DNA from: Promethearchaeia archaeon
Lineage (GTDB): Archaea > Asgardarchaeota > Lokiarchaeia > Sigyniarchaeales > SOKP01
Direction of reading: 5' to 3'
DNA: 64,000 bases
Assembly: GCA_029856045.1 (NCBI GenBank)
Contig: JAHQWG010000048.1
Span: forward strand, 1 to 64,000
In this document: positions 10,558 through 60,957 of the stretch, one piece after another
How the letters are laid out: each line of letters opens with the position of its first letter
Numbering within the stretch: the first letter of the stretch is position 1
The notes under the pieces: model-generated
Databases searched by the model: none
Told to the model about the DNA's origin: nothing
The model's input: only the letters and a program-made list of their open reading frames with translations
Translations under genes and position numbers: made by a program

Positions 10558-11052
10558 ATGTCCGAAGAAGATAAATATAGTAAAATTGTAAAACAAATTA
10601 AATCAGAATTGGAAACCAATACTTTAATCGCAAATAAATATGGTGTAATATTAGGTTCTGAAATTGAAGATTTGAATAAAGGAAAAATTATTCCGCCAGA
10701 AATTTTGGATTTGATAAATCAGAGAGCGAAATTCGCTAAAAGTCTTAAATTGAAAGAAATATATTCAATAATTTTAGAAAGCGAAAAAGCTTTTTTCTTA
10801 ATTACTAAAACTAGTGAATTAATTTTACTAGCGCAATTAAAAAAAAGTGTAGATTTATCACAACTTATTCCAAGTGTAAAAAAGTTTCTCGAAAAATTAG
10901 CAGTGGGTATTGCAAAAAAACTTGAAATTGATGAATTTTCAAAATTTGAATTCGTAAAAGAAATAATTAAGTTAGATGATTCATTAAAAACAGATGAACA
11001 AAGGCAGCTAAAATTTAATATTATTAAAGATTTAATTAAATATATTTCATAA
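10558..11052 (+). CDS. Roadblock/LC7-like protein with C-terminal extension
   Basis: Helix, TLIANKYGVILGS beta-hairpin, helix, three strands (SIILESE/FLITK/LILLAQ), helix; directly upstream of a small-GTPase gene. Confidence 0.6.
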   Translation: MSEEDKYSKIVKQIKSELETNTLIANKYGVILGSEIEDLNKGKIIPPEILDLINQRAKFAKSLKLKEIYSIILESEKAFFLITKTSELILLAQLKKSVDLSQLIPSVKKFLEKLAVGIAKKLEIDEFSKFEFVKEIIKLDDSLKTDEQRQLKFNIIKDLIKYIS

Positions 11053-11113: not shown

Positions 11114-13105
11114 GTGAATATTATTCTAAGGCAAGTTTATATTTATAAAGAGGGTGAATTGATATATTCCTGTCAGTTTGGCAAGGCATTAACGCAAGAA
11201 GATTTTACTAGTTTGTTCAAACAACTACGTAAAGATGCTATGGCTGCACCAAGTGATAAGATTGAATATCATGATTATTATAAATATAGAATCACATACG
11301 CTACAGAAAAAAAATTAGATTTAATGTTTCTATTTGTAACCGGTTTAACTGATTCATCCAAAGATATTAAAACTGAATTGCTTAGATGTAAAAGGGAATT
11401 TCTGAATCTTTTTGGGGATATAATCAAAACTGAATTTGATTCTAAAACTTTTGAAGTATTTGACCCAACAATTGATGTAATTCATAAAAATTTACGCCCC
11501 AAAATTTCACTCGTAGGATTTTCTGGTGTTGGAAAGACAACAATAACTAGATTAATTAGGGCTGAAGAAATACCGATGGAACATATCCCTACTATAACTG
11601 GAGATATAGCAACTATAAAAATAGGGAAATTACACTTTCACTTATGGGATTTTGCAGGACAAGAACAGTTTAGCTATTTATGGAATAACTTTGTTAAAGG
11701 TAGTGACGCAGTCCTTCTCATTACAGATTCAACTTTAGAAAATATAGAAAAAAGTAGATTTTTCCTCGATTTAATAAAAGATGAAGCACCCCACGCACAT
11801 ACTGCAATAATTGGAAACAAACAAGATCTTTCAGATGCTCTTCCTGTAACAGAAATTGAGAATATTTTAGGTTTAAAAACTTATAAAATGATTGCAAATA
11901 AAAATGAAAATCGGGATAAAATGATTACAATAATTGCTGATATCCTTGAAATGAGTTCAGAAGTAAGCCCCTTATTGAAACCATTGATTGAGAGAGATAA
12001 ATTATTACAAGACGCTGAATTATCACTTAATGAAGGCAATTTCCAAAATTCTTTAACCTTATTTGAAAAAATTGCGGATTTATGTCTTGATTTAGGTGAT
12101 GATAGTTTAGGAAATGAATTTAATGAAAAAGCCCAGAAGATTAAAGAAATTTTAGTAAAGATGGAAACAACACCAGTTGAGATTGTTAAACCAAAGGAAG
12201 AAGGAGTTCAACCTGCATCGGTAAAATCAACATCACCTGAACCCAAAGTTGCTCCTAAACCGGCGATTCCTAAACCACCAGTAATAATAATACCAGATGC
12301 AGCTGAACCTAAAGCTGCTCCTAAACCGGCGATTCCTAAATCACCAGCAATAAAAAAACCAAGTGTACCAGAACCTAAAGCTGCTCCAAAACCAGCGATT
12401 CCTAAACCACCAGCAATAAAAAAACCAAGTGTACCAGAACCTAAAGCTGCTCCAAAACCAGCGATTCCTAAACCACCAACAATAAAAAAAACAACTGTAC
12501 CTGAATCCAAAGTTGCTCCAAAACCAACTTCACCTAAATCACAATCCACACAGCCAAAATTAACAATTAATCTCGCAGATTTTAAAATTAAACCCCGTCC
12601 AACAAATATCTTATCCGCAAAAACCACCGGACCTAAACAATCATTAACGGTCAGTCCGTTTAGTGCTATAAAACAAGAAGAAACTCAACCAAAACCATAC
12701 ACTACTAAACCCAAATCACCATATCAACAACCCTTGCCTGATTCTAAGAGACCATCTCCGCCAATGCAAATACCACAGCCACCCATCCCACCGAAAGCTC
12801 CCCCTCAAACCTCTATTCCAAAGCCTATGACTCAACCAACACCAGCTAAAACCAAACCCCCAATAACAATCATAAGTGACCAAGGAGGTACACAAAAAGA
12901 TGAACTTGAAAAAACTTTAATGGATTTAAAGATTAAATTTGCAAATATTTCTAAAATGGAACTCGACCTTGATATGAAAGAAATTTCAGGGGAAATAACC
13001 TCAGAAGAGTTTAATGAGAAATCACAAAAAATTAAAGCCATAAAAGAGAATATTTCAAAACAAATTGAAGATATTCAGAATCTGTTAAATAGTTTTAGCG
13101 CATAG
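11114..13105 (+). CDS. Multidomain Arf-related GTPase: longin-like domain, G domain, MIT/TPR-like bundle, Pro-rich repeats, C-terminal helical hairpin
   Basis: G1 GFSGVGKTT, G2 PTIT, G3 WDFAGQE, Arf-type LWNNF, G4 GNKQD. N-terminal longin-type pattern. True start may be ATT at 11123. Confidence 0.88.
   Translation: MNIILRQVYIYKEGELIYSCQFGKALTQEDFTSLFKQLRKDAMAAPSDKIEYHDYYKYRITYATEKKLDLMFLFVTGLTDSSKDIKTELLRCKREFLNLFGDIIKTEFDSKTFEVFDPTIDVIHKNLRPKISLVGFSGVGKTTITRLIRAEEIPMEHIPTITGDIATIKIGKLHFHLWDFAGQEQFSYLWNNFVKGSDAVLLITDSTLENIEKSRFFLDLIKDEAPHAHTAIIGNKQDLSDALPVTEIENILGLKTYKMIANKNENRDKMITIIADILEMSSEVSPLLKPLIERDKLLQDAELSLNEGNFQNSLTLFEKIADLCLDLGDDSLGNEFNEKAQKIKEILVKMETTPVEIVKPKEEGVQPASVKSTSPEPKVAPKPAIPKPPVIIIPDAAEPKAAPKPAIPKSPAIKKPSVPEPKAAPKPAIPKPPAIKKPSVPEPKAAPKPAIPKPPTIKKTTVPESKVAPKPTSPKSQSTQPKLTINLADFKIKPRPTNILSAKTTGPKQSLTVSPFSAIKQEETQPKPYTTKPKSPYQQPLPDSKRPSPPMQIPQPPIPPKAPPQTSIPKPMTQPTPAKTKPPITIISDQGGTQKDELEKTLMDLKIKFANISKMELDLDMKEISGEITSEEFNEKSQKIKAIKENISKQIEDIQNLLNSFSA
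12239..12525 (+). repeat. 66-bp coding tandem repeat (EPKAAPKPAIPKPPAIKKPSVP), ~4.3 copies
   Basis: Units start at 12239, 12305, 12371, 12437 and 12503. Confidence 0.92.
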
Positions 13106-57970: not shown

Positions 57971-59551
57971 ATGTCTAAACAAGAAGATATAATTGCTGGA
58001 AAGTTAATTGGTAAAACAACAACACACACGGTTAATTTGTTAATTGTGGATAAAAATGTAGGACGAAATGATCATTTGGTAATTTATACTGATTCTGATA
58101 GTAATGAAGACAAAAATTATTATTTATTTAAGATAATTGATATCTGGAATGATAAACAAGGATTAATGGCAACACTAAAAGTTCTCGGCCATATGCCGAA
58201 AAGACCCTTTAAGATTGGAACAGAAGTTTATCTTGCTAAAAAGAAGCAAATCATAGAAACTTTAGGGATTGATAATCCCGAAGAAGAATCATTATATTTT
58301 GGGTCACTACTCGGTTATTCTAAATATGATGTGCACTTATTAATAAAAAATTTTGGTAGAATTTTTATTACGGGTAAATCTGGCTCGGGTAAATCATATA
58401 CTATGGGAGTGTTAATTGAAGAATTCCTCAAAAAAGGAATCCCTGTAGTCATTTTTGATCGACATGGTGAATATTCAAGTTTAAAAATTTCTAGAGAAAT
58501 TTCAGAATCTGATGAAGAAATCCCTGCTGAAGATTCAGAACCTGAATATTGGGATATAAGTAAATCTTCAGAACCAATTGAAGAATTAACAAGTATTACT
58601 TCAGATTCCGAAATGGAAATTCCAATTGAAGAATTAGAAAAGGAAAAAATAAATCCCAGTGAATTTGTTGAAAAAATAATAGAATTTGCTGATTTGAATA
58701 TGAATGAGGGAGCGGATGTGGACATAAAATACATTTTTTCTTTAGATGCAACTGATTTAGTATCTTCAAATTTATGTACAATTATAAATTTTAGAGGTTT
58801 ACCATTGGAACTTCAAGAGGTTATTGCCAATGATATTCTTATGAAATTATATAATGCAAGCACCTCAAAACAAATTCAGCCATTCTATCTTTTTATAGAT
58901 GAGGCTCATCTTTTTGCAGGTAAAAAAAAAACAGACACATCTGAAACTGTAAAACTATTTTCTCAAGAAGGAAGGAAATTTGGAGCAAATCTCGTTATCT
59001 CTACTCAAAAACCCCAATTATTAGATGTTACGATAAGAGGTCAGGCAGGAACATGGATAATACATCAATTAACTGATATTAGAGATGTTGATATAACTGT
59101 TTCAAGTGCTGAAGATTTAGGTCCAGAATATAAAGAAGAAATTCAAAGATTAGACCCAGGTGAATGTATAATTTGTGGCGATGCCGTTAAGATAGCACCG
59201 TTATTTCTAAAAATTAGAAAACGAAAAACCGAACATGGAGGTATAGGATTTAATCCTCTCGATTTTCTTTCCAAAGACACTATTGAAGATATAAAGAAGA
59301 AAAGACTAAAAATTTTAGAAGCCAAATCAGAAGGTGAATTGGCAGAAGCGGAAAATCTCTTTCAAAAATATTTTACTGGAAAAGAAATACAAAAATCGGC
59401 TAAAGAAATAGAACTTTTAACAAAAATGATTGAAGAATTAGATGCTGAAGTTAAAATATGGAAAGATAAATATAAAAAACAAAAAGAAAAGGCAAATAAA
59501 GCTACAAAATTAGCAGAAGAAGCTTTAATTGAAGCAAAGAGAAAATCTTAA
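57971..59551 (+). CDS. HerA/DUF87-family ATPase
   Basis: N-terminal HAS-barrel-like region, GKSGSGKS, DRHGEY, FIDEAH, EGRKFG, STQKP, HGG. Confidence 0.9.
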   Translation: MSKQEDIIAGKLIGKTTTHTVNLLIVDKNVGRNDHLVIYTDSDSNEDKNYYLFKIIDIWNDKQGLMATLKVLGHMPKRPFKIGTEVYLAKKKQIIETLGIDNPEEESLYFGSLLGYSKYDVHLLIKNFGRIFITGKSGSGKSYTMGVLIEEFLKKGIPVVIFDRHGEYSSLKISREISESDEEIPAEDSEPEYWDISKSSEPIEELTSITSDSEMEIPIEELEKEKINPSEFVEKIIEFADLNMNEGADVDIKYIFSLDATDLVSSNLCTIINFRGLPLELQEVIANDILMKLYNASTSKQIQPFYLFIDEAHLFAGKKKTDTSETVKLFSQEGRKFGANLVISTQKPQLLDVTIRGQAGTWIIHQLTDIRDVDITVSSAEDLGPEYKEEIQRLDPGECIICGDAVKIAPLFLKIRKRKTEHGGIGFNPLDFLSKDTIEDIKKKRLKILEAKSEGELAEAENLFQKYFTGKEIQKSAKEIELLTKMIEELDAEVKIWKDKYKKQKEKANKATKLAEEALIEAKRKS

Positions 59552-59574: not shown

Positions 59575-60957
59575 TTATTTTTTTTTAAGTAATTTTTTAA
59601 TCTCTTCAATTTTATTGGTAGCATTTTCTAAATCATACTTCAATTTTTTCATTTGTTTATTGTAATCATTTTGTTTAATTTTTCCGTCTCCTTTCTTTTT
59701 CTTAAGGAAGTTAATTAAATTCTTAACTGAATTTATTTTACTCTCTAATCCTTCTAATTCAGCATTTAATTCTTTTTTAGACTGTTTCTTTTTTGTTGAA
59801 GGCATTCCTTTCGGTCTTGGGGGTAACGGCTTTTCAGTTGATGGTTTTTTAGGTAATTCAGTTAATTCTGATAATTCATTGTCCTCTTCAACGGTTTCCG
59901 CTTCAACTTCTCTTTTTAATTTCTCAAAATCTATTCCAAGATCTGGGGCTTCTTCTAACTGTGGCGGTTGTTGAACCTTTTCTTGCATTTCTTTGATTGC
60001 CTGTAATTCAATGATTTCATCTTCTGATCCGATTACTGAATCTATTAATTTATTTACAACATCACTTAAAGCATTTAATTCATCTAATACTGAATACAGA
60101 GTCTGTATAAGGTCACTTTTTGAGGAGATTTTAATTTCTGACTTTACCGTAATTGGGGAATACATTTGAGAACCAACCTCCCCTTCAGCATCAGAAAGTG
60201 AAGGATGTAAACTTGAACCATAACCCAGTCCAGGTTTTTTGGATGGAATTGTAGAAATCCCTTTTTTCTTCATTGTTAATCGATATTCAGAAATCAACCA
60301 AGTAAATAAATTTAAGGCAAGTTTTTTATGTTGATCATTTTCAATTCCACAGCCAATCTCATCTCTAAATATTTCATAACTACCAATTGCACATACTAAT
60401 CCATTATCAGCTTCTGATACAATTATCAAAGGAACTGAGAAGGGATCTGCATCTTGATCACTCATTGCAATTGGAACAGAACCCCCAATTGTTGTAAGAG
60501 AACAACCCGCACGATAGCAAATTTCATTAATTTCTTCAGTGATTTGATGAGGTGGTGTAAATGTAGAGGCTTTTGGTAAATTTTCCATGCCATAATTATT
60601 AGGTGAAAGCACTTGATCATTTTCAAATGTAATTCCAAACCGTTCCGCTAGAGCGGAAAGGTTAGTTTGACGACCCTTATCACCTCCAGCATGACTTAAT
60701 AATAATAATCCACCACCATCTTCTCTCACCCAATTCTCAATCTCATTTATTTCCTGAGGTGCAATCTTTGCAAAATCAGGACAAGCAAACACCAAAATAT
60801 CGTAAGGTTTTAGAGTTTTATGGGTAATTGGAAATTCTGAAAATTGATATGATTCAAAACCTTGAGAATCCAAGAGTTGTTTTATCGTTTTGTAGTTGAT
60901 ATCAATTCTCCCTCTTGGTTTATGGCTCTCATTCCAAGCTATGAAATTTCCAACCAA
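59575..60957 (-). CDS. GIFT (IFT52/GldG/DUF4350)-like domain with coiled coil, Pro-rich linker and C-terminal hairpin
   Basis: ESH, YDILVFACP....EINEIENWV..GGGLLLLSHAGG...TNLSALAERFGI.F.ND, VCAIGS..IF.D, NLFTWL; no signal peptide or TM. Confidence 0.78.
   Translation of the reverse strand: MVGNFIAWNESHKPRGRIDINYKTIKQLLDSQGFESYQFSEFPITHKTLKPYDILVFACPDFAKIAPQEINEIENWVREDGGGLLLLSHAGGDKGRQTNLSALAERFGITFENDQVLSPNNYGMENLPKASTFTPPHQITEEINEICYRAGCSLTTIGGSVPIAMSDQDADPFSVPLIIVSEADNGLVCAIGSYEIFRDEIGCGIENDQHKKLALNLFTWLISEYRLTMKKKGISTIPSKKPGLGYGSSLHPSLSDAEGEVGSQMYSPITVKSEIKISSKSDLIQTLYSVLDELNALSDVVNKLIDSVIGSEDEIIELQAIKEMQEKVQQPPQLEEAPDLGIDFEKLKREVEAETVEEDNELSELTELPKKPSTEKPLPPRPKGMPSTKKKQSKKELNAELEGLESKINSVKNLINFLKKKKGDGKIKQNDYNKQMKKLKYDLENATNKIEEIKKLLKKK

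Follow-up and report, generated by a model that had tools for sequence, protein, structure and literature searches.

The ESCRT-I headpiece is formed by antiparallel helical hairpins of Vps28 (N-terminal region, PF03997), Vps23/TSG101 (PF09454) and Vps37 (PDB 2F6M, 2F66 and 6VME). Mixed bundles of such steadiness-box (SB) hairpins are described for both eukaryotes and Odinarchaeota (PMC10936438, PMC9192718). In the latter, a Vps23 dimer combines with Vps28 to give a trimer, and a free-standing SB protein of Loki is reported to interact, in yeast two-hybrid assays, with both Vps28 and Vps22 (PMC9192718). Makarova et al. (2024, mBio, PMC10936438) suggest that multidomain Asgard proteins bearing an SB may dock onto the SB motifs of ESCRT-I, with their other domains recognizing substrates; the general notion of a modular SB tag shared by diverse Asgard heads is already published there. 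The SB calls in that work rest on HHpred probabilities rather than Pfam cut-offs (its Table S3), and PF18822 serves as the model for 'CdvA coiled-coil or SB'. Among 39 of the 81 'steadiness' rows of its Table S2, the entries are just Znr_CC_PH_SB, PH+SB and 'Steadiness/Vps23 box'. The written content of its main text and of supplementary files 1-6 and 8-10 was found to hold no GTPase or GIFT protein tied to an SB.

The proteins considered here are an Arf-like GTPase and a GIFT protein, each ending in a predicted hairpin of the same length as those of the headpiece, and both encoded in one window of 64,000 nucleotides (the whole stretch of DNA analysed) from a Promethearchaeia archaeon. Neither architecture, GTPase-hairpin or GIFT-hairpin, was found in any searchable text. 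We take the head-linker-hairpin layout of these proteins to resemble that of TSG101. Unlike in ESCRT-I, neither a UEV domain nor a partner that would form a stalk was identified here. The Znr_PH_CC_SB protein (asCOG cog.011556) likewise ends in a hairpin of ~70 residues after a low-complexity linker, whereas the present hairpins are borne by an Arf-like GTPase head and a GIFT head. IFT52 is not known to carry such a hairpin. The ArfR/AArf GTPases of Asgard archaea share the kind of head domain found in the GTPase. Described ArfRs bind membranes through an N-terminal amphipathic helix (bioRxiv 10.1101/2024.02.28.582541), whereas the GTPase here has an N-terminal domain of ~125 aa instead; the terms 'coiled-coil', 'CdvA' and 'C-terminal extension' are absent from the text of that preprint.

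Two further families resemble the tails. The CdvA coiled coil (PF18822; S. islandicus, PDB 9S9G/9S9I), which is reported to polymerize via hydrophobic faces (Drobnic et al. 2026, PMC12818579), provides both their best Pfam family and their best superposition, with all matches below cut-off. CdvA is a filament-forming protein in which a PRC barrel is joined by a coiled coil of three helices and a peptide that binds ESCRT-III, whereas the tails consist of two helices that end soluble multidomain proteins. SHOCT (PF09851) shares the C-terminal position and a similarly worded helix-Gly-helix turn, but is 28 residues long; on the GTPase tail of the window it covers the turn only (12 residues) and scores 14.2 bits, below the curated cut-off of 27.

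The features of the two genes and of the upstream neighbour are given below, with tail coordinates that include the stop codons, as did those of the original prediction.

10558-11052, + strand: 164-aa gene directly upstream of the GTPase gene and co-directional with it, a likely operon partner from the position of its homologues in other genomes
11114-13105, + strand: whole GTPase gene, 663 aa, with an N-terminal ~125-aa domain, an Arf-family G domain, a short conserved helical region, a Pro/Lys linker and the hairpin
12155-12886, + strand: Pro/Lys-rich flexible linker of the GTPase, ~240 residues
12887-13105, + strand: predicted C-terminal helical hairpin of SB type in the GTPase, covering residues 592-663 and the stop codon (69-tail alignment, AlphaFold2, hhalign)
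59575-60957, - strand: whole GIFT gene, 460 aa, with an N-terminal IFT52-type GIFT domain, an acidic helical middle, a short Pro-rich stretch and the hairpin
59575-59787, - strand: predicted C-terminal helical hairpin of SB type in the GIFT protein, covering its last 70 residues and the stop codon (alignment, hhalign)

The GTPase head belongs to the Arf family. Pfam Arf (PF00025) matches residues 127-258 (E 6.4e-21, 75 bits vs a cut-off of 22.3), the G1, G3 and G4 motifs are intact, and the P-loop, DxxGQ and NKxD are invariant across 22 orthologues. The nearest solved chains to the G domain are 8oun_A, a 'GTP-binding protein' (E 1.7e-16), and then Arf1 (~1e-16), with 8oum_A also close. All 16 orthologues retrieved combine Arf/Roc domains with the tail; this GTPase-plus-tail version is restricted to the order, and is present in about 88% of the sampled genomes of its family. 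The N-terminal domain (residues 1-125) has no Pfam match, and its sole lead in the ESM Atlas, SRP-alpha_N at 0.75, falls below the trustworthy range. Within the linker lie a tandem repeat with a unit of 66 nt (4.4 copies at 12235-12526 by Tandem Repeats Finder) and, at about 12560-12682, a linear motif of ~40 aa conserved across orthologues (alignment columns 601-660). Of the 31 other genomes having a match, 25 place a homologue of the 164-aa gene immediately 5' of their GTPase-tail gene, and the 164-aa gene is likely the operon partner of the GTPase. Its product has no Pfam or PDB match, and the idea that it is roadblock-like was dropped as unsupported.

The GIFT protein matches Pfam IFT52_GIFT (PF23355) at E 8.4e-12 and 45.1 bits, above the cut-off of 27.2, which places its head in this family. 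The same domain was recovered in eight of the nine orthologues retrieved, the ninth having been truncated by the start rule applied. GIFT homologues are widespread (112 of 151 Asgard genomes). Promethearchaeum syntrophicum encodes an orthologue (P0058), and its genome (G038) also has the GTPase gene, preceded by the candidate operon partner.

The likeness between the two tails was first noticed as a gapless alignment of two quoted peptides, each said to follow a Pro-rich linker. Both peptides are indeed the C-termini of real ORFs, and the linker amounts to the ~240 Pro/Lys-rich residues of the GTPase and to seven prolines in the 23 residues that precede the GIFT tail. The alignment contains 20 identities over 65 positions, with a BLOSUM62 raw score of 83, whereas shuffled sequences average -29.9 (SD 18.1, z 6.2) and none of 20,000 shuffles reaches 83. 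The host genome itself (29.4% GC) served as the background for ranking: of the 762,786 windows (65 aa each) cut from 3,214 of its ORFs, two score at least 83 against the GTPase tail. One is the query, and the other, the best non-self match, is the GIFT tail. The next best window, at 67, is again a C-terminus, that of a third protein. Composition-adjusted BLASTP finds no significant similarity between the two tails (E 0.96), a result superseded by the proteome-wide ranking and the profile tests. Judged from their sequences, the GTPase and GIFT tails are homologous and belong to a single hairpin family.

This family can be followed well beyond the two genes. A total of 69 tails from 41 genomes align without any gap over a domain of ~70 residues in which the turn glycine (domain residue 35, G35) is invariant, and all of them lie 0-15 residues from the protein C-terminus. 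The hairpin form proposed for the tail agrees with AlphaFold2, which from the 69 aligned tails predicts an antiparallel hairpin with helices at 2-34 and 39-71 and a mean pLDDT of 95.8. The models thus have the ~60-70-residue antiparallel two-helix hairpin by which the SB/CdvA-like superfamily is recognized. Several paralogous tails, with 2-5 matches per genome, coexist in 39 of 41 genomes of the order. The host genome holds at least five carriers, which are the GTPase, the GIFT protein, a 472-aa protein (p3), Znr_PH_CC_SB and Vps28; giant tail-bearing proteins range from 1,291 to 4,380 aa. Family HMMs run against the whole proteome (13,245 ORFs) cross-match almost wholly inside the tail set, with weak outside matches to C41, C27_80, C25 and C27_276.

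The tails are Lys-rich in the 69-tail alignment, and their two helices differ in surface. The conserved hydrophobic positions of helix 1, 12 in number in the GTPase tail, cover an arc of 280 degrees there and of 260 degrees in p3, while the arc on helix 2 spans 80-140 degrees. Each tail family conserves its own distinct helix-1 surface. In the AlphaFold2 model of p3, both the hairpin (residues 406-471, pLDDT ~95) and the head are confident, but the overall pTM is 0.25, so that no fixed contact between head and hairpin is predicted. In p3 the head is a bundle of four helices of generic kind, with Foldseek matches to BRIL, FAT and FliS at E>0.1 and no usable match in the ESM Atlas.

Profile-profile comparison with hhalign was controlled with 30 reversed templates, the best of which gave P 3.4e-4, and with 24 real helical families drawn from the proteins under study, the best of which gave P 0.0057 and spanned just 10-32 columns. 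The GTPase tail matches the GIFT tail at P 2.4e-5, p3 at 6.5e-5 and the giant tails at 1.5e-6. Links among the others are stronger, with P 1e-11 between GIFT and p3 and 2.4e-19 between p3 and the giant tails, and the registers of all links are transitively consistent. The original prediction was to fall if the likeness proved no better than a coiled-coil background; at P 2.4e-5 against a best control of 3.4e-4, the match between the two tails exceeds that background.

The proposed resemblance to steadiness-box and Vps28 hairpins is borne out for some tails only. The tail of the Znr_PH_CC_SB protein of the host genome (L038) is matched by p3 (P 1.3e-11), the giant tails (4.5e-9) and GIFT (2.8e-7), and itself matches the Vps28 N-hairpin of the same order at P 6.2e-9. 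That Vps28 hairpin is also matched by GIFT (P 2.9e-6) and p3 (4.7e-6). The similarity of GIFT and p3 to Asgard SB hairpins therefore stands above the best of the 54 controls (3.4e-4). Compared directly, the GTPase tail does not resemble the Vps28 hairpin (P 0.52) and matches the Znr_PH_CC_SB tail at control level (P 0.0047). On these profiles it is the most diverged member and joins the SB family solely through the GIFT, p3 and giant-protein tails. Taken with these links, a relationship of the hairpin family to the ESCRT-I steadiness-box hairpins is supported.

Searches with single families give a more mixed picture. The Pfam family matched by the largest number of tails is PF18822 (CdvA), with 17 of 69 at E<=0.01. 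Its match to the GTPase tail has E 5.7e-5 to 2.3e-6 and 23.6-29 bits, vs a cut-off of 30, and it takes the same register in both window tails (profile positions 42-106/107). PF18822 also has matches at E<=1 in 10 of 14 control genomes. The GIFT tail scores E 0.011 with Vps23_core and 0.092 with CdvA. Two of the families that the original prediction had singled out for checking, Vps23_core (PF09454) and SHOCT, are matched at E<=0.01 by two and nine of the 69 tails respectively (best SHOCT E 4.6e-5), in no case at a curated cut-off; the generic helical families GvpG and FlgN are matched by 12 and 10. None of the 69 tails reaches the curated cut-off of PF18822, PF09454 or PF03997, the closest being the 29 bits with PF18822. 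Designed coiled coils dominate a profile search of the PDB. Among the best 60 of its 96 matches, CdvA is the only natural full-length sequence match (E 0.006), and there is no Vps23, Vps28 or Vps37 chain. The search gave no significant sequence match to eukaryotic chains of the headpiece. A phmmer search of the PDB with the GIFT tail returned nothing useful.

Structure comparison leads to a similar point. The top Foldseek matches of the predicted hairpin are chains of the human ESCRT-I headpiece (6vme_K/M/C; E 0.48, TM 0.76-0.84, 23% identity), with no match at E<=0.001. The best VIA superposition is on CdvA residues 124-195 (Z 10.8, rmsd 0.9-1.0 over 72 residues, 21-24% identity), with seryl-tRNA synthetase arms and designed hairpins scoring about as well (Z 10.3-10.7), and 2f6m_C follows at Z 9.8. 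As modelled, the fold itself is generic, and neither Foldseek nor VIA can separate SB or CdvA from seryl-tRNA synthetase arms.

The genomic context does not mark the tail proteins as ESCRT-I subunits, since neither gene neighbourhood nor strict co-occurrence ties them to Vps28, Vps23 or ESCRT-II genes. No ESCRT gene lies near the GTPase or GIFT gene; the neighbours encode a dodecin, an aspartate kinase, a nucleotidyltransferase, a HerA-like ATPase and sugar-nucleotide enzymes, and the host Vps28 gene is on a different contig (C37). A canonical Vps28 with its N-hairpin is absent from the PF03997 search of four genomes that are 96-97% complete (G008, G011, G012 and G022), which have only a Vps28_C domain inside a protein of ~790 aa, and the same search of a fifth (G027, 88% complete) gave no match. 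The tails are kept in all five. Vps28 was therefore rejected as an obligatory partner.

On balance, the tail is probably an SB-class hairpin whose most likely job is assembly, tethering heads to a small helical bundle. It would belong to the same module family as the Asgard Vps28 N-hairpin and the Znr_PH_CC_SB tail, with the CdvA coiled coil as a more distant relative. The hairpin appears to have been placed at the extreme C-terminus of unrelated heads (Arf-like GTPase, GIFT, the four-helix bundle of p3 and the giants), from which a long flexible linker would part it. The hydrophobic surface of helix 1 seems to exceed what packing against helix 2 would need, and the extra face may pack beside other hairpins. 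Each head would then be tethered via its linker to a small helical bundle, so that, going by sequence, the shared tail is probably a docking tag on the GTPase and the GIFT protein. We infer that the hairpin oligomerizes, and that its bundle partners may be other SB hairpins (Znr_PH_CC_SB, p3 or Vps28) or copies of the same tail.

The closest competitor, which we consider rather unlikely, holds that the tails self-associate only: each family would form a homodimer or homotrimer through its own tail and raise the avidity of its heads, with no mixing and no tie to ESCRT-I. The conservation of a separate helix-1 surface in each family, the distance of the GTPase tail from Vps28 and the persistence of tails where canonical Vps28 was not found would all fit, as would the reported Odin Vps23 homodimer (PMC9192718) and the self-polymerizing CdvA hairpins (PMC12818579). 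The coexistence of paralogous tails in nearly every genome of the order speaks against it, however, as do the mixed SB bundles reported outside this order (PMC10936438, PMC9192718). It is quite improbable that the hairpin is regulatory rather than a glue between proteins, folding back on its own head as an autoinhibitor or serving as a modification site. Asgard UEV-Vps23 is reported to toggle between autoinhibited and active states and to be ubiquitinated on its SB (bioRxiv 10.1101/2023.07.25.550441), the long linker would permit fold-back, and the tails are rich in lysine; but the same tail occurs on heads of unrelated fold, which makes a common head-binding surface unlikely, and the p3 model predicts no fixed contact of this kind. 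Convergence is highly improbable. In that case, K/E/L-rich helices with a Gly turn would recur by chance in an AT-rich genome, as generic coiled coils or extended SHOCT-like domains, and the BLASTP result, the generic fold and the sub-threshold, mixed Pfam matches (GvpG, FlgN, and SHOCT on the turn region) could be read in this way. Chance recurrence accords poorly with the first rank of the GIFT tail in its own proteome, the gapless, in-register alignment with its invariant glycine, hhalign links of P 2.4e-5 to 2.4e-19 that exceed every control, HMMs that find almost nothing but one another, and the unfailing position at the extreme C-terminus.

A broader version of the assembly reading, distinctly unlikely as a whole, would have the GTPase, GIFT, p3 and Znr_PH_CC_SB hairpins of Lokiarchaeales form an ESCRT-I-like headpiece hub of their own, independent of Vps28. 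From it, the linkers would hang a nucleotide switch, a GIFT head binding cargo or glycans and a membrane-binding PH domain, giving a GTPase-controlled membrane adaptor made of parts later split in eukaryotes between ESCRT-I, Arf and IFT-B.

The tail bears on the wiring among ESCRT, small-GTPase and trafficking-like proteins of Asgard archaea. It offers a concrete conserved handle, one SB-class hairpin shared by an Arf-like GTPase, a GIFT protein that occurs across a large part of the phylum, and three other kinds of protein. The system is tractable, with tails of ~70 residues and both genes present in the cultured P. syntrophicum. If the tails only self-associate, they would be an ordinary oligomerization tag, and the published view that the SB docks onto ESCRT-I would need narrowing. 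If the hairpins do bundle with one another, a GTPase switch would be physically coupled to an ESCRT-I-type assembly in an archaeon.

The hairpin-bearing proteins come from a genome of 55 contigs (3.34 Mb, GC 29.4%), and their named relatives all belong to Promethearchaeota/Lokiarchaeota-type metagenome bins and Promethearchaeum syntrophicum. The relevant features of the window are:

10558-11052, + strand, 164-aa ORF without a known family, co-directional with the GTPase gene and lying 61 bp ahead of it
11114-13105, + strand, GTPase gene, 663 aa
12235-12526, + strand, tandem repeat of 66 nt (22 aa), 4.4 copies with 90% matches, in the Pro/Lys linker of the GTPase
about 12560-12682, + strand, linker motif of ~40 residues, coordinates counted by hand
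59575-60957, - strand, GIFT gene, 460 aa

The 663-aa ORF contains an Arf-family G domain at residues 127-258 (Pfam Arf, E 6.4e-21, 75 bits), and its nearest solved chains are 8oun_A, a 'GTP-binding protein', and Arf1 (near 1e-16 in the PDB comparison). Its N-terminal ~125 residues (11114-11488, + strand) are conserved and have no Pfam match; a weak Atlas lead (0.75) points to the SRX/longin-type N-domain of SRP receptor alpha, and longin-GTPase fusions are known in Asgards. The linker varies widely in length among orthologues (alignment A6), and the ~40-residue motif in its middle, conserved across the order's orthologues (A6 columns 601-660) within otherwise variable sequence, may be a short linear motif for binding. 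The 460-aa ORF carries an IFT52-type GIFT domain (Pfam, 45.1 bits, cut-off 27.2); by hand count, 7 Pro fall within the 23 residues that precede its tail. Convergent with the GIFT gene, with stop codons 23 bp apart, lies the gene of a HerA/DUF87-type ATPase (57971-59551, + strand), which carries its own C-terminal coiled coil; no link to the hairpin family was detected.

The last ~70 residues of both ORFs are the peptides quoted in the original prediction, and the gapless likeness claimed for them is confirmed. The two tails share 20 of 65 positions ungapped with a raw BLOSUM62 score of 83, reached by none of 20,000 shuffles (z 6.2). Of the 762,786 windows of 65 residues that 3,214 ORFs of this K/E/I-rich genome yield, just two scored at least 83 against the GTPase tail: its own and that of the GIFT protein, the top non-self window; the next best window (67) was the extreme C-terminus of p3, a 472-aa ORF on contig C15. 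Composition-adjusted BLASTP of the pair was not significant (E 0.96), and the likeness needed profile methods for conviction.

A three-sequence profile searched in 41 genomes of the order Sigyniarchaeales found matches in 39, with 2-5 per genome. The matches whose sequence was read comprise 73 distinct tails, all located 0-21 residues from the ORF end, in reading frames 111 to 4,388 aa long. Sixty-nine of these align over 72 columns without a single gap, with an invariant turn Gly and with Leu14 and Ile60 more than 90% conserved. From this alignment, AlphaFold2 predicts a hairpin of two helices (2-34 and 39-71) joined by a four-residue turn, at a mean pLDDT of 95.8. The tails sort into clear orthologous groups, namely the GTPase, GIFT, p3 and giant types. 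Arf/Roc domains occur in 16/16 fetched GTPase-type ORFs and a GIFT domain in 8/9 fetched GIFT-type ORFs, the ninth being shortened by the crude first-Met rule used to set ORF starts in relatives.

The Pfam evidence for this family is thin. Both window tails match PF18822, the CdvA-like coiled coil, at E 7.3e-5 and 0.092 and in a shared register (42-106/107 of the profile). In a six-frame scan of the genome no PF18822 match outscores the GTPase tail, whose 29 bits fall short of the cut-off of 30. At E<=0.01, the 69 tails match PF18822 (only 17, sub-cut-off), GvpG (12), FlgN (10), SHOCT (9) and Vps23_core (2); PF18822 also matches at E<=1 in 10/14 control genomes. Sequence similarity of the steadiness box (SB) hairpin to CdvA was reported by Makarova et al. 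(PMC10936438), and the link also appears in a 2023 preprint (10.1101/2023.07.25.550441).

Structure comparison adds little, as the tail fold is a generic antiparallel coiled coil. Foldseek ranked human ESCRT-I headpiece chains first (6vme_K/M/C, TM 0.76-0.84, 23% identity, E 0.48). VIA-align placed the CdvA hairpin on top (9s9i_B and 9s9g_A, with Z 10.8 and 21-24% identity; rmsd 0.9-1.0 across the full 72 residues), but arms of seryl-tRNA synthetase and designed hairpins tie with this score (Z 10.3-10.7), and 2f6m_C and 6vme_K reach Z 9.8. A PDB profile search returned CdvA as the only natural full-length match (E 0.006). Of the two kinds of signal, sequence alone supports kinship of the tails.

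Because the Pfam evidence is thin, alignments were built for two hairpins accepted as Asgard SBs, both taken from this order: that at the N-terminus of Vps28 (Vps28N; 26 sequences, window-genome orthologue on C37 with a PF03997 score of 47 bits) and the C-terminal hairpin of Znr_PH_CC_SB (Znr tail; 29 sequences, window-genome protein of 624 aa on C15, published as cog.011556).

Profile-profile comparisons (hhalign; each P value refers to one comparison, and subfamily alignments are drawn from one order, whose related genomes are not independent)
p3 vs giant: 2.4e-19
p3 vs Znr tail: 1.3e-11
GIFT vs p3: 1e-11
giant vs Znr tail: 4.5e-9
Znr tail vs Vps28N: 6.2e-9
GIFT vs Znr tail: 2.8e-7
GTPase vs giant: 1.5e-6
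GIFT vs Vps28N: 2.9e-6
p3 vs Vps28N: 4.7e-6
GTPase vs GIFT: 2.4e-5 (65 columns)
GTPase vs p3: 6.5e-5 (70 columns)
GTPase vs Znr tail: 0.0047
GTPase vs Vps28N: 0.52

Alignment registers are transitively consistent across the tail families. Thirty controls with column-reversed templates reached no P lower than 3.4e-4, and 24 comparisons with four real-helix families from the same proteins (GTPase helical region, p3 long helix, p3 head and GIFT middle region) none lower than 0.0057, spanning only 10-32 columns. All P values listed above except those of GTPase vs Znr tail and GTPase vs Vps28N lie below the best control. The proposed likeness to ESCRT-I steadiness boxes stands for the GIFT and p3 tails, which beat the controls against both Vps28N and the Znr tail, but not for the GTPase tail compared directly. 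Run against the full set of 13,245 stop-to-stop ORFs in the window genome, the family HMMs match one another and almost nothing else; for example, Vps28N finds Znr (1.2e-6), the Znr tail finds Vps28 (9.5e-6) and p3 (5.6e-6), GIFT finds p3 (1.6e-5) and giant finds GTPase (0.0016). Weak extra matches fall in a 422-aa ORF on C41 (0.0047), an 80-aa ORF on C27 (0.0019) and two more (0.028-0.043). From these profiles, we conclude that the tails and the Asgard steadiness boxes form one family, of which the GTPase tail is the most diverged member, its membership resting on its sister tails.

Further proteins carry the hairpin or resemble its carriers:

L004:280-1698 (G000, the window genome, contig C15), p3, 472 aa, best-conserved SB-type tail, present across the order
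L071-L076 and L081 (genomes G027, G029, G031), giant proteins of 1,291-4,380 aa with the same terminal hairpin
L006 (G000:C41), 422-aa ORF whose C-terminal hairpin is SB-like but weaker (HMM E 0.0047 to 8.9e-4)
L080 (G033:C1:3650250-3651920), Ribophorin I (OST1-like) homologue, 30.5 bits vs 25

In p3, the head is a conserved four-helix bundle bearing acidic 'PTPDDE' and 'WDTL..WF' motifs; a long helix (120-157), some 240 residues of disorder and finally the tail follow. Neither Pfam nor the Atlas matches the protein, and no PDB match is specific. The giant type belongs to another family of the order, where genomes have up to 5 tail-bearing ORFs and neither the GTPase type nor the 164-aa partner; these proteins have no Pfam domain at E<=1e-4. 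Conservation of the 422-aa protein extends at least across its genus (G002, G004), and its helical head is without Pfam matches. The tail-like C-terminal helical segment of the Ribophorin I homologue is weak (E about 1e-4) and may be chance.

Counted at E<=1e-10, the GTPase-type tail occurs in 66 of 301 sampled Asgard genomes, usually in single copy; without the window's own genome, these comprise 60/68 of its family (SOKP01), 5/7 of the sister family and 0/225 of all other families. GIFT homologues are found in 112/151 Asgard genomes, and 7 of 12 GIFT ORFs from seven other families have an HMM-recognised near-C-terminal hairpin (best E 2e-6 to 2.2e-9 per ORF), 5 being without. These distributions indicate that joining GIFT to the hairpin is an old and widespread arrangement and that the GTPase gained its tail within one order. 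The 164-aa gene, without Pfam or PDB match, lies directly upstream of the GTPase gene in the same direction in 25 of 31 other genomes with a match; the two likely form an operon, and this recurrent position makes the 164-aa protein a candidate GTPase regulator. The GTPase and GIFT genes (12887 and 59578 in the window) are separated by 29-61 kb of a shared contig in G000, G001, G004, G005, G014, G020 and G024, and likewise, judged by ORF size, in G021 and G022, which we read as long-range conserved gene order across the family, not an operon.

The idea that multidomain Asgard proteins carry an SB through which they may dock onto ESCRT-I was already published by Makarova et al. (PMC10936438). 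GTPase-SB or GIFT-SB architectures are not mentioned in the text and supplementary files 1-6 and 8-10 of that paper, nor among 39 of the 81 'steadiness' rows of its Table S2, nor in the portions covered of the Asgard Arf preprint (10.1101/2024.02.28.582541) and Liu et al.'s 2020 preprint, nor in the literature retrieved by steadiness box, Asgard and GTPase searches, as far as its text was available.

SB hairpins serve as modules for assembly: the eukaryotic ESCRT-I headpiece consists of three SB hairpins (PMC10936438), the odinarchaeal trimer of a Vps23 dimer plus Vps28, and a free-standing SB protein of Lokiarchaeota binds Vps28 and Vps22 in two-hybrid assays (both PMC9192718). A simple reading of the tails as ESCRT-I subunits is counted against by two observations: the GTPase and GIFT genes have no ESCRT neighbours, and tails are kept in genomes where no canonical Vps28 was found. 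By the Pfam VPS28 model, canonical Vps28 was not found in G008, G011, G012 and G022 (96-97% complete), where PF03997 matches only as a Vps28_C domain inside a ~790-aa protein, and G027 (88% complete) has no match; all five keep tails. The ~790-aa protein (L041, G000:C36:77934-78206, and L138-L141; PF03997 positions 87-180) fits a published class of Vps28_C multidomain proteins.

CdvA coiled coils polymerise via hydrophobic faces (PMC12818579). With positions hydrophobic in at least 80% of tail members taken as conserved, the arc on helix 1 spans 280 degrees for the GTPase tails (12 positions), 260 for p3 and 180 for the GIFT tails, compared with 80-140 degrees on helix 2. The wider arc on helix 1 would therefore leave a conserved greasy surface spare after packing on helix 2, as would be expected if helix 1 also packs on another hairpin. 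The tail is best read as a putative docking tag attached through a flexible tether. Should a common hub exist, Znr_PH_CC_SB, found in 38/41 genomes, and p3 are better candidates than Vps28.
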